The position numbers and the translations under genes were made by a program. A stretch of 64,000 bases of DNA, taken from contig JAHPZJ010000025.1 of assembly GCA_019058245.1 (NCBI GenBank), positions 28,408-92,407 of the forward strand, read 5' to 3'. This stretch comes from Promethearchaeota archaeon. Its GTDB lineage: Archaea; Asgardarchaeota; Lokiarchaeia; Sigyniarchaeales; SOKP01. The notes beneath the pieces are model-generated. The model was not told the origin of the DNA. It made no database searches and was given only the letters and a program-made list of their open reading frames with translations. Within the stretch, counting starts at the first letter, position 1; every line of letters begins with the position of its first letter. Of the stretch, positions 37,417 through 42,830 are shown piece after piece.

Positions 37417-38564
37417 AAAAGATATCTTTAACTAAATCGGAAGGAGACACTTATTTTATAAAAAGTAGGGATATACCAAAAGGGTGTAAGTATTGTCTAA
37501 AAGGGAGTAAGGTAGTATTATTTCTAAATGGTATATGTCAAAAACCAGACCATTGTTCTTGGTATTGTCCAATTTCGGAAGAAAGGAGAGATAATAATCA
37601 AACCTATGCAAATGAAATTGAGATTACATCTAAAGAAGAACTAATTAAAGAAATAAATATGATTAATGCTCAAGGAATGAGCATTACTGGCGGGGAAACG
37701 CTTTCAGATTTAAACTTTGAAAGAACAATTGATTATATCAAATATACTAAAAATAAAAAAGGAAAAAAGTTTCACATTCACCTTTATACAAATGGCATTA
37801 ATTTTAGTGAAGAAAAAGCTGAAAAATTATCTATAGCTGGTTTGGATGAAATACGATTTCATCCTTCTAAAGAAGAATGGGCTAATATAGAGAAAGCTCT
37901 AAATAAGCATATGGCAGTTGGAGTAGAAGTACCCGTTATCCCTGAAAATGAGAAATTAAAAGAACTCGAACAATTAATCCTCTATTTAAATACAATTGGA
38001 GTAGATTTTATTAATTTAAATGAATTTGAATATTGTTTTCCAAATAGTGAATCATTAAAAGAACGAGGCTTTCAATTGAAAAAAGGAACAATTGCCACGG
38101 TTGTTGATAGTAAGGAAACGGGACTTAATTTAATAAGAAGCATCGGGTCTAAAGTATCTCTAAAGATGCATTTTTGTACTATAAGAGCAAAAGACTATTT
38201 TCAATTAAAAAACCGATATATTAGAAGAGCCAAAAACATCAGGCTAGCTTATGAAGTAATTAATGAAGAGGGGCTTATAATTTATGGACAAATAGAGGGC
38301 AATCAAAAAGAATTAGATGAATTGTATAAAATTCTATTGAATAAGCTAAAAATTCAAGATAAATTGATTTCGTATAATAGAATTAATATTAAACTTCCCT
38401 TTTATATATCAATTAAAGAAGAATTTTTATCACTTCTAGAAAATTATAACTTAAAAGGTTTTATTGTTGAGATTACACCTTTTAGGCATTTAAAATACCA
38501 ACAAATAACAGAAAAAACCCCTATTAAATTATTTAAAGAAGAGTATGGCTTTGATAGAAGTTAA
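37413..38564 (+). CDS. Radical SAM protein
   Basis: PKGCKYC, C-x5-C-x3-C, SITGGE, HIHLYT and GLDEIRFH. Confidence 0.88.
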   Translation: MKKISLTKSEGDTYFIKSRDIPKGCKYCLKGSKVVLFLNGICQKPDHCSWYCPISEERRDNNQTYANEIEITSKEELIKEINMINAQGMSITGGETLSDLNFERTIDYIKYTKNKKGKKFHIHLYTNGINFSEEKAEKLSIAGLDEIRFHPSKEEWANIEKALNKHMAVGVEVPVIPENEKLKELEQLILYLNTIGVDFINLNEFEYCFPNSESLKERGFQLKKGTIATVVDSKETGLNLIRSIGSKVSLKMHFCTIRAKDYFQLKNRYIRRAKNIRLAYEVINEEGLIIYGQIEGNQKELDELYKILLNKLKIQDKLISYNRINIKLPFYISIKEEFLSLLENYNLKGFIVEITPFRHLKYQQITEKTPIKLFKEEYGFDRS

Positions 38565-39030
38565 AAAGGTTCTTACCAAAGATTTAAACAAAATAACAAC
38601 TCTCGAAAAGAAAATTTTTAAGGAGAATGCATTTTCGAAAGAATTAATTGAGAAATTAATTATGAAAAACTTATTCTTTTTAAAACTGGAAATTTCTAAA
38701 GTAAAGAATAAGATAATTGGTTTTATTATTGCTTTAAAAGATCAAAACAAAAATGTTAGTATTATTAACTTTCTTATTGATCCCAAATTTCAAAATAAGG
38801 GATATGGGTCATACCTTCTACAATATACTATAGAAAAGATAAAAAAATTAAATAATATCAAAAAAATTACCTTAAATGTTCAATTAAGTAATTCCATTGC
38901 TATTTGTCTGTATGAAAAATTCAATTTCAAAAGAAATCCAACAATTTTAGAGAATTATTATCAATCTGGAGAAAGTGCTTATTTAATGGAACTTGAAATT
39001 AACTCTCGATTAACTAAAACTTATAAATAA
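38545..39030 (+). CDS. GNAT N-acetyltransferase (RimI/Ard1-like)
   Basis: IDPKFQNKGYGS, LNV..SN..AI.LYEKFNF and YYQSGESAYLM. Confidence 0.88.
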   Translation: MALIEVKKVLTKDLNKITTLEKKIFKENAFSKELIEKLIMKNLFFLKLEISKVKNKIIGFIIALKDQNKNVSIINFLIDPKFQNKGYGSYLLQYTIEKIKKLNNIKKITLNVQLSNSIAICLYEKFNFKRNPTILENYYQSGESAYLMELEINSRLTKTYK

Positions 39031-39103
39031 ATTCTATTATAATATGTGTAAATATTAAATTAATTATTTTTAATGAATTTAAAATAGAAGGTGTTTATTA
39101 AAA

Positions 39104-39256
39104 TTGGCTCCAGTAGATAAAGAACTTCAAGAAGAAATTAAAAAGGGTGTAACACTTCAAAAAGTTGATGAAGAAGAGTTAAAGAGACGTGAAGAAGAAA
39201 AAAAGAAACGTATGGAAGAGCTAGAAAAAGTTAAAGAAGCTCTAGGAGAAAAATGA
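39104..39256 (+). CDS. Unannotated 50-aa peptide with WH2-like motif and charged helix
   Basis: TTG start after GAAGGTG; MAPVDKELQEEIKKGVTLQKVDEEELKRREEEKKKRMEELEKVKEALGEK*; T-rich tract downstream. Confidence 0.8.
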   Translation: MAPVDKELQEEIKKGVTLQKVDEEELKRREEEKKKRMEELEKVKEALGEK

Positions 39257-39409
39257 AAAAACAGTATATCTAAAAGAGTTAATTTTTATCTTTTTTATTT
39301 ATTTTATTATTAAAAAATAATTTTTATTATACTAGATTAAATTAAGCTTTTCTTTAATTTTAGATTAGTTTTATTTAATACATAACTTTTTAAGATAAAG
39401 TCTAAAGAT

Positions 39410-40483
39410 TTGAAAATTCTAAATCTTGATCTAAAACTTGGAAAAGTAAAAGTACAGGTTGAAAATCTATACGATTTATGGTCTCTGTATAATATTATTG
39501 ATAAAAATGATGAAGTTAGTGCTTTAACTCAGAGAAGAGTCGTTCTTAGAGAAGGTACCAAGGGTGAACGAAAACGAATGAGATTAAAACTAAAAGTTGA
39601 GGATGTCTCCTTTCATGAATTTTCAAATCGATTGAGAATTAAGGGCAAAATTCTTGAGGGTCCAGACGATTTTGTCAGTTTTGGGTCATATCACACTTTT
39701 AATGTTGAAATACCACAAAAAATAACAATTATTAAGGAATATTGGTTAAATAATGAAATTAATCGACTAAAAGAGACTTCAAAATTTGAATCTAACTTCA
39801 TAATTCTAGTATGCGCAATCGAAACAGGATTAGCAACAATAGCACTTATTACCAATTTCAGTCATAATAGAATTGCTACGATCAGAAAAAACATCCCTGG
39901 TAAAAGATATAAACAGACCTATCGCAATAAGGCGTTAGAGGAGTTTTTTAGTGAAATAAAAAATGTTATGATTGAAAAGACTAAAAATTCAGAAATCGAT
40001 TTAATTATATTGTGTGGACCAGGTAATACTAAAGATAATTTCTTACAATATTTTCAAAAAGATCCAGAGATGACCTTTAAGGGAACAATAGAAACTTGTC
40101 AAGCAAGTTCTGGGACAGAGAGTGCTATTAGAGAGACTTTAAAATCAAATAAATTGGAAAAGTTAAAAAAAAAAATTAAAGTCCTGCAAGAAACAGAAAA
40201 AATTGAAAATATTATGACACAATTTGTAAAGGATGCCGATCTCATAGTTATCGGACTTGAAGAAGTGTCTAAAGCCTCTGAAAAAGGTGCAATTAAACAG
40301 TTAATGATAGCAGACATTTTAATTAGAGGTTCCTCTAAAAAAGATAAATTAAAAATAGAAGAAATTATAAACAATGTTAAAAATAGTGGTGGGGAAATTA
40401 GTATGATGAGCACTGAAAATATAACTGGGGAGCAATTAGTAAACCTAGGTTCTATAATTGGAATTTTACGATATAAACTTTAA
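39410..40483 (+). CDS. pelA: Pelota/Dom34 ribosome rescue factor
   Basis: DLWSLYNII, RLRIKG.I, GSYHT, GPG, GEQL..LGSI.GILRY. Confidence 0.95.
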   Translation: MKILNLDLKLGKVKVQVENLYDLWSLYNIIDKNDEVSALTQRRVVLREGTKGERKRMRLKLKVEDVSFHEFSNRLRIKGKILEGPDDFVSFGSYHTFNVEIPQKITIIKEYWLNNEINRLKETSKFESNFIILVCAIETGLATIALITNFSHNRIATIRKNIPGKRYKQTYRNKALEEFFSEIKNVMIEKTKNSEIDLIILCGPGNTKDNFLQYFQKDPEMTFKGTIETCQASSGTESAIRETLKSNKLEKLKKKIKVLQETEKIENIMTQFVKDADLIVIGLEEVSKASEKGAIKQLMIADILIRGSSKKDKLKIEEIINNVKNSGGEISMMSTENITGEQLVNLGSIIGILRYKL

Positions 40484-42362: not shown

Positions 42363-42830
42363 ATGTGTGCCGAAGAATTTGCAAGTTTCTTAGATAGCAC
42401 TCGAAAAGCGCCTTTGGAAGAAAAGCTAAATGCATTTGGCGATATCATTGAAAAGATAATGTCAATTGTTCTACGTATACCAGATTTAGTAGATCAATCT
42501 ATTGGTTCTGTAAACGATAAGGTTTCGAATTTACAAAATCAAATAAATTCTTTAAATAACCAAATTACATCTCTACAATCTAGATCAGGAACGGCTCCAG
42601 GAGCACCCGCTCCAGCTACACGTGCTCCAGGTGGTCCATCAGGTAGCCCACCAGGACCTCCACCACCTACACCGGGTGGTCCTCCAGGCGGTCCCCCGGG
42701 TGGTCCTCCAGGTGGCCCCCCAGGTGGTCCCCAAGGTCCTAGTCGTCCAGCTAGTCCAGTTTCGCTTAGAGGGGCTATAATGGGAGAACTAAAACAGTTG
42801 TTTGCTAAGAGAAAAAGTCAATCTGACTAA
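42363..42830 (+). CDS. Coiled coil + GGPP polyproline repeats + C-terminal amphipathic basic helix
   Basis: PPGPPPPTPGGPPGGPPGGPPGGPPGGP followed by SLRGAIMGELKQLFAKRK; GC-rich repeat at about 42590-42750. Confidence 0.88.
   Translation: MCAEEFASFLDSTRKAPLEEKLNAFGDIIEKIMSIVLRIPDLVDQSIGSVNDKVSNLQNQINSLNNQITSLQSRSGTAPGAPAPATRAPGGPSGSPPGPPPPTPGGPPGGPPGGPPGGPPGGPQGPSRPASPVSLRGAIMGELKQLFAKRKSQSD

Follow-up and report, generated by a model that had tools for sequence, protein, structure and literature searches.

A ~40-residue module from one order of Loki-type Asgard archaea, found free, fused to profilin and in tandem arrays: a candidate WH2/beta-thymosin-like binder of actin monomers

Profile comparisons indicate that a 50-residue micro-protein, encoded in the 64,000-nucleotide stretch of archaeal DNA analysed here (the window), represents, in stand-alone form, a module of ~40 residues that is restricted to a single order of Loki-type Asgard archaea. 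The sequence of this module, its predicted models and its fusion to an Asgard-type profilin suggest that it may bind actin monomers in a WH2/beta-thymosin-like way, a reading that is offered tentatively and with real reservations.

The product of the gene, M/L-APVDKELQEEIKKGVTLQKVDEEELKRREEEKKKRMEELEKVKEALGEK, is encoded in AT-rich DNA (24-31% G+C in the window), and the elements around the gene are collected in Table 1. The earlier note had described a standalone small ORF preceded by a ribosome-binding site, and this description holds: the GGTG of the Shine-Dalgarno-like sequence stands at the same distance from the start genus-wide (GGGG or AGTG in a few species), and ATG, GTG and TTG start codons interchange at one fixed site behind it across relatives. 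The ORF proves to be a genuine, strongly constrained gene, with pairwise pS of ~0.5, pN of ~0.08 and a mean pN/pS of 0.15; for example, it differs from its homologue at L002 by 14 synonymous and 1 non-synonymous changes. A chance ORF or antisense artefact was considered and rejected because the other five frames of the locus are closed and because of the pN/pS of 0.15. The same note called the gene unannotated, which is true of the ORF track alone, since NCBI records of metagenome-assembled genomes already list homologues as 'hypothetical protein'. The protein itself probably escapes shotgun proteomics because a K/R-rich sequence of this kind would yield very short tryptic peptides.

Table 1. 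Positions in the window of the micro-protein gene, its presumptive signals, the two halves of the encoded module and the flanking genes
Feature	Position	Strand	Description
GNAT acetyltransferase	38545-39030		flanks the micro-protein gene
Near-invariant upstream block	39032..39055	+	directly after the GNAT stop; holds the TATA-like TATTATAATAT
Shine-Dalgarno-like AAGGTG	39088..39093	+	10 nt 5' of the start codon; read from the sequence
Micro-protein gene	39104..39256	+	50 codons plus TGA, TTG start; from ORF calling and translation
WH2-like half of the module	39122..39166	+	residues 7-21, ELQEEIKKGVTLQKV: amphipathic helix, Gly, then L-x-K-V
Charged helix half of the module	39167..39244	+	residues 22-47: D-E-E-E-L...K33..R36-M-E-E-L-E-K-V...L47
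Oligo-T tracts	39283..39308	+	3' of the micro-protein stop; read from the sequence
Pelota/eRF1-type protein	39410-40483		other flank; radical-SAM proteins follow

A DNA alignment of 12 species of the genus revealed that almost every column is invariant over the ~25 nt 3' of the GNAT stop, in contrast to the synonymous sites inside the ORF, which differ at ~50%. This block is probably the gene's own archaeal promoter (BRE-TATA), given its position ~60-70 nt before the start, and it could instead be another regulatory element. Oligo-T tracts are a general archaeal termination signal, and those that follow the stop codon are likely the terminator of this gene, so the gene is probably monocistronic; a search for a hairpin-type terminator after the gene found none. 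The upstream block and the T-tracts together suggest a separate transcription unit.

By six-frame searches of 40 relatives, the micro-protein turned up in 23 of the 24 genomes sampled from the genus, always as an open frame of 51-63 codons and with an identity of 76-98%, and weaker matches appeared in other families of the order; stand-alone members of the family are 50-55-aa ORFs throughout. When the phylum was surveyed through 251 sampled genomes, the gene was present in 50/54 from its own family and 5/5 from a second family, and in just 1/190 from 26 other families (E 8e-4). Therefore, the family belongs to one order, in which the gene is near-universal and single-copy, and the conservation in Asgard genomes to which the earlier note had looked is strong within that order and does not extend across Asgard archaea. 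The more than 520 database relatives are all named 'hypothetical protein'; relatives whose records name an organism are almost all Promethearchaeota, plus one contig labelled bacterial. Within the genus, the identity of the micro-protein (78-98% in this comparison) exceeds that of the adjoining Pelota (64-89%) and GNAT (58-83%) proteins, and the radical-SAM genes of the same loci are also less conserved.

The residues that define the module can be read from the free homologues and from its other copies. In alignment A1 of the homologues, conservation reaches 90% or more at I12, L18 and V21, and K20, E32, K35 and R36 do not vary. Across 106 module units, numbered as in the 50-mer, the best kept positions are L18 (105/106), K/R33 (102/106) and R36 (101/106), followed by D22 (79/106), K20 (67/106) and G15 (62/106); position 21 is P in 44 units, I in 41 and V in 17 (P/I/V in 102/106), and positions 12, 26, 37, 40, 43 and 47 are hydrophobic. 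The charged helix (residues 22-47) is the most conserved half. AF2 predicts the equivalent of these residues to be helical in both fused and tandem forms, and places the G-x-x-L-x-K-h-D stretch in low-confidence loops between helices.

Profile searches place the module in at least four architectures, among them profilin fusions, tandem arrays and LRR fusions. The arrays are ~490-aa proteins of family f2 with ~ten units, 7-9 of which score with the profile, and their units carry a doubled hydrophobic residue (LL, LI, LM) before E-I. The AF2 model of an array contains ~37-residue helices, long and amphipathic, joined by ~9-residue low-confidence loops that hold L-x-K-h-D; it shows no compact fold (pTM 0.17) and, as a prediction, has the beads-on-a-string look of multi-WH2 proteins. 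In the LRR fusions, one of which occurs in the genus of the window, the module precedes a ribbon-helix-helix (RHH) or zinc-ribbon part, and there are short forms that consist of the module and a C-terminal domain and nothing else. Many long matches in the representative search covered only the charged, low-complexity profile positions 21-40 and were set aside, and a search of the 5.8-billion set, in which charged low-complexity proteins crowded the listing, found no longer relatives.

The link between the module and the actin system comes from its fusion to an Asgard-type profilin. In the fusions (36 clusters, ~250 aa), a linker joins an N-terminal domain to one module, after which comes a further domain at the C-terminus; some family members have up to four modules. 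An hhalign comparison of the micro-protein family with the fused module aligned 41 columns at 46% identity, with a probability of 97.3% and an E-value of 1.8e-11. One fusion protein was modelled with AF2 at a mean pLDDT of 76 (76-89 per 10-residue block over residues 1-120), and a Foldseek search of the PDB with its N-terminal domain retrieved Odin profilin (5zza_P; E 4e-10, TM 0.88, 29% identity), then Loki profilins 1 and 2 and eukaryotic profilins, with Roadblock proteins far lower. The Pfam Profilin model matched two fusion members below its cut-off (E 2.5e-4 and 1.5e-3), and two members of the fusion family are precomputed as PF00235. On the combined grounds of predicted fold and sequence, the N-terminal domain can be assigned as an Asgard-type profilin. 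The fusion coexists with the free micro-protein in two genomes of the window's family (G180 and G240).

The C-terminal ~60 residues of the profilin fusions (columns ~250-322 of alignment A3) form a further conserved domain, in which an invariant Y-D-D-F is followed by a helix. This domain has no Pfam match and also accompanies the module in proteins that lack profilin (P0187, P0209).

Actin is present in this archaeon. Its genome (G000), 3.09 Mb at 76% completeness, has genes for five actin-family proteins, two of which score 441 and 428 bits with Pfam Actin, the level of Lokiactin; the actin and profilin that the earlier note had presumed are thus there, as the 441-bit Lokiactin and as profilin-like proteins. 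This Lokiactin (L021:1474-2616; loci L047-L063) is 98-100% identical across the genus, 99-100% at the protein level in 17 of its genomes, that of the window included, and 88-93% identical across the order, 40/41 sampled genomes of which carry actin. Asgard archaea in general carry actin (PMC9433394), so it counts against an actin-binding role that the module family, by comparison, is found in one order alone.

A protein of 412 aa encoded in the same genome (contig C10, L078:1474-2709) combines a profilin-like N-terminal domain, homologous to that of the fusion family (E 4e-16), with a TrmB-type winged helix (Pfam E 8e-11). Its gene lies ~290 nt downstream of an actin paralogue (L022:1402-2619), and its domain composition suggests that it could be an actin-sensing transcription regulator.

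Because profilin is the sole firm functional tie, and because domains joined in one protein often contact each other or act in one pathway without having a ligand in common, it could be argued that the target of the module is profilin, gelsolin, a different cytoskeletal partner or membrane lipids, and not actin itself; the module would then be part of the actin system but no equivalent of WH2. This proposal appears quite improbable, as the module has no proline-rich stretch for the poly-Pro site of profilin and binding of this type does not explain the fusions to LRR and RHH parts.

On the resemblance of the module to known actin-binding segments, the evidence is divided. The spacing L8-x3-I12-x2-G15-x2-L18-x-K20-V21 is the canonical WH2 spacing, and conservation of the motif among homologues, whose absence the earlier note had named as part of a refutation, was borne out, with L8, I12, G15, L18, K20 and V21 all kept in alignment A1. 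The amphipathic helix of WH2 is represented by a helix with conserved L8 and I12 that is ended by G15 and is helical in the AF2 models, and the doubled hydrophobic residue of the array units fits this pattern. For the L-[KR]-[KR]-[VT] segment, the Leu lies at the expected +6 from the Ile, but the window protein (LQKV) lacks the first basic residue. The layout of a beta-thymosin is also found, in that the protein is a free 50-55-aa peptide and the module is modelled as helix-loop-helix. Some members have a canonical LKKV, and distant members such as ELRKEIEASGKDKLKKV have a 2-residue insertion, which we take to give the beta-thymosin (thymosin beta-4) spacing. The array units, on the other hand, do not keep the basic residues around the Leu, and the profilin fusions have Pro at position 21.

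Family models gave this resemblance no significant score. The earlier note had suggested scoring the protein against the WH2 HMM; Pfam WH2 (PF02205) did not match the window protein at E <=10, and it matched 2/32 relatives (best E 0.031), neither of which reached the cut-off. The most canonical relatives scored 13-15 bits (E 0.03-0.6) against a gathering threshold of 23.1 bits. When genomes were scanned with the same model, family members scored 13.3-13.6 bits (E 0.39-0.6), and matches in control genomes reached similar levels; in two genomes (G027, G029) the micro-protein homologue was the best match genome-wide, but at E ~0.5. Pfam Thymosin (PF01290; threshold 24.8 bits) matched no family member in five genomes at E <=10 and none among the 32 members. 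In addition, the regular expression h-x3-h-x2-G-x2-L-x-K-[VT] occurs in 2 frames of the genome, the micro-protein and the C-terminus of TFB, versus 2-8 in shuffled proteomes, so the WH2-type pattern alone is not beyond chance in this genome.

Comparisons with structures and learned features pointed weakly towards the WH2/thymosin reading. The best PDB match of the family profile is the N-WASP tandem WH2 chain 3m3n_W (E 0.044), but the weight of this match is reduced because a profile of the N-terminal half puts de novo TIM barrels with repeated LQEALKKG first (N-WASP following at E 0.19) and because three repeats in one chain help the score; both the TIM-barrel and the N-WASP matches are helped by repeats. 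By language-model features, the nearest named clusters are Thymosin PF01290 (scores 0.87 and 0.86), which serves as a lead only. The WH2/beta-thymosin-like motif of the earlier note therefore stands as far as its canonical spacing and its conservation are concerned, and fails on HMM significance and on frequency above chance, so that on sequence grounds membership of the module in the WH2 or thymosin family is not established.

Patterns of this type are also seen in a 762-aa protein from a JGI metagenome (P0210), which is eukaryote-like and contains FHA, PP1-binding and two SAP domains. It has at least 12 repeats of the type RNAIKAGVQLKKV, which match positions 8-23 of the family profile and, weakly, Pfam WH2 (E 0.002), so WH2-like patterns look to occur also in seemingly nuclear proteins.

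These results leave room for the view that the module serves generally as a helical adaptor or spacer and that its resemblance to WH2 is convergent, a product of helix capping and amphipathic periodicity. It could take the form of a helix-loop-helix, a piece of antiparallel coiled coil, or an E/K/R-rich single alpha-helix with a hinge, and serve oligomerisation, spacing or a partner other than actin. The residues G15, L18, h21, D22 and E25 would fit a plain helix-loop-helix equally well, as its C-cap, hydrophobic staple and N-cap signals. Conservation in the module is highest in the charged helix, which has R36 and a heptad-like stripe of hydrophobic residues; R36, K/R33 and a long charged helix are, as sequence features, foreign to WH2 and count against the actin reading. 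The same view accommodates the long amphipathic helices of the arrays, the scores and chance frequency described above, and the presence of the module in LRR proteins with RHH or zinc-ribbon parts, where no link to actin is seen, and before an unrelated C-terminal domain. However, the array is modelled without compact packing, and in the 50-mer residues 27-36 are purely charged, which would leave the short first helix of a hairpin with hardly any surface for packing. Spacers are seldom 78-98% identical with invariant single residues, and the repeated fusion to profilin would be hard to understand without a functional connection to the actin system. A convergent adaptor or spacer is for these reasons rather unlikely.

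Gene neighbourhood offers a different perspective, in which the micro-protein would be linked to translation as a partner of aEF1-alpha, Pelota or the ribosome, and gene position would reflect function. Across the genus, and at loci L034, L038, L039 and L044 in three other genera from two further families, the genes run in one order, GNAT - micro-protein - Pelota - radical SAM; in genera g2 and g9 (L043:729-1403, L045:1733-2326) the small homologue faces a convergent ZPR1 gene. Both Pelota and ZPR1 count among the partners of EF1-alpha, a shared connection that may be a coincidence. The gene also resembles those of housekeeping factors in being near-universal, single-copy and highly conserved in its order. 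Nevertheless, it has its own promoter-like block and T-tracts and lies ~150 nt from Pelota, the ZPR1 genes are convergent and not co-transcribed, and in family f4 the neighbours are MoxR ATPases. The TMA7 model (PF09072), tried for the charged C-terminal half, found nothing in five genomes up to E 10, and among the 32 members no match to a ribosomal or translation family emerged at that level. As a core translation factor would not be expected to be confined to one order, and as the profilin fusions and arrays would be left unexplained, a role in translation is very unlikely.

The neighbourhoods do not point to actin either, since no actin-related neighbours were found beside the micro-protein relatives or the array genes examined. 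The array genes adjoin YggS-like and TrmI genes, and the profilin fusions lie among Asgard-type genes (AAR2, GPP34), none of which is for actin. A BAR-like gene 2.4 kb downstream of the micro-protein gene in the window was considered as a functional link and dropped; its proximity carries no weight because it is unlinked in other families, lying 77 kb away in G030 and megabases away in G038. Beside this BAR-like gene, the window encodes (42363-42830) a coiled-coil and polyproline protein that ends in SLRGAIMGELKQLFAKRK, which by eye is like the first helix of the module in LRR fusions (SLRHSIMGEIKQAIP in P0214); Pfam had no match to this protein.

If the module does bind actin monomers, its two halves suggest how it might do so. 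In the first half, a short amphipathic helix (L8, I12) that ends at Gly15 would be followed by an extended L18-x-K20-[V/I/P]21-D22, whose Leu could anchor on the actin surface as part of the L-x-K-V segment. In the second half, a long charged helix with the invariant Arg36 and a hydrophobic stripe at 37, 40, 43 and 47 would add contacts along the monomer. The free micro-protein may then buffer Lokiactin monomers or hand them over, the profilin fusion may act as a higher-affinity or two-site profilin, and the ten-unit proteins may line up several actin monomers.

The known Asgard actin regulators are profilins and gelsolins. Searches of full-text literature found no report of a free WH2 or thymosin-like protein in Asgard archaea, and the WH2-like motifs that have been reported there lie inside gelsolins only (PMC9433394; 10.1101/2025.11.30.690169). 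It is possible, if doubtful, that Loki-type Asgard archaea have a WH2/beta-thymosin-like actin-binding module of their own, in the form of a free 50-residue binder, a profilin chimera and a ten-unit protein. If so, archaeal actin regulators would gain a third class, next to profilins and gelsolins, and with it the first candidates in archaea for the sequestration of monomers and for nucleation through their alignment, as the ten-unit protein could align actin monomers in the way that Spire, Cordon-bleu and VopL do. It would also raise the question of whether WH2-type binding is pre-eukaryotic or convergent. Actin binding by the module is directly testable, as a 50-residue peptide can be synthesised and rabbit actin has already served in assays of Asgard actin regulators. 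Should the partner turn out not to be actin, an unnamed and sharply defined ~40-residue module, better conserved than its Pelota and GNAT neighbours, has still come to light.

Comparison with known systems places the module nearest to two eukaryotic-type elements without making it a copy of either. Like the WH2 segments of WASP, WAVE, WIP, Spire, Cordon-bleu and VopL/VopF, it has an amphipathic helix with hydrophobic residues at i and i+4, a Gly, a Leu at Ile+6, x-K-V and a charged stretch; it occurs singly and in tandem arrays and near profilin-related functions, and its loop is predicted to lack a fixed structure. Unlike WH2, it fails the Pfam model, has one basic residue (LQKV) and often none in the fused or array copies, frequently has Pro at position 21, and continues into a conserved 25-residue charged helix (Arg36, K/R33), whereas WH2 has no conserved sequence after LKKV. 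The beta-thymosins (thymosin beta-4, ciboulot, actobindin) share with it the free peptide of ~45-50 residues, an N-terminal helix, a segment of the L-K-K-T/V type, a second helix and the existence of multi-repeat forms, and distant members of the family (MSDKPK..., ...EIEASGKDKLKKV) have an 8-residue Ile-to-Leu spacing, presumably that of thymosin beta-4. In contrast to beta-thymosins, the module has no match to the Thymosin HMM and is archaeal and confined to one order, and its second helix, which is far longer and better conserved, follows directly, with no Pro-containing linker.

Other comparisons concern elements that are unrelated in sequence or differently arranged. The linker of Asgard two-domain gelsolins contains the WH2-like motifs LVDV, LKDV and LRRV (PMC9433394; bioRxiv 10.1101/2025.11.30.690169). 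The module shares an L-x-x-V segment with these motifs, and the gelsolin one contacts actin in crystal structures, so the corresponding site is usable on an Asgard-compatible actin; the gelsolin motif differs in being part of the gelsolin fold, in having no amphipathic helix-Gly prefix of its own and in being unrelated in sequence. In trypanosomatid profilin, a WH2-like helix binds the actin cleft and both parts of the protein touch one actin monomer (PMC10907219), which resembles the profilin fusions in combining profilin and a WH2-like element in one polypeptide. The trypanosomatid element, however, is an internal insertion in a eukaryotic protein, while the module stands after the C-terminus of profilin, across a linker of ~25 residues, and is followed by a further domain. 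Finally, the C-terminal peptide of Arcadin-2 from Crenarchaeota binds the hydrophobic groove of crenactin and sequesters monomers (PMC5173319). As an archaeal peptide that acts on an archaeal actin, which is what is proposed for the module, Arcadin-2 is the nearest archaeal functional analogue, although its peptide shows no sequence relation to the module, forms part of a larger protein, sits on its target in the opposite orientation and acts on crenactin, not Lokiactin.
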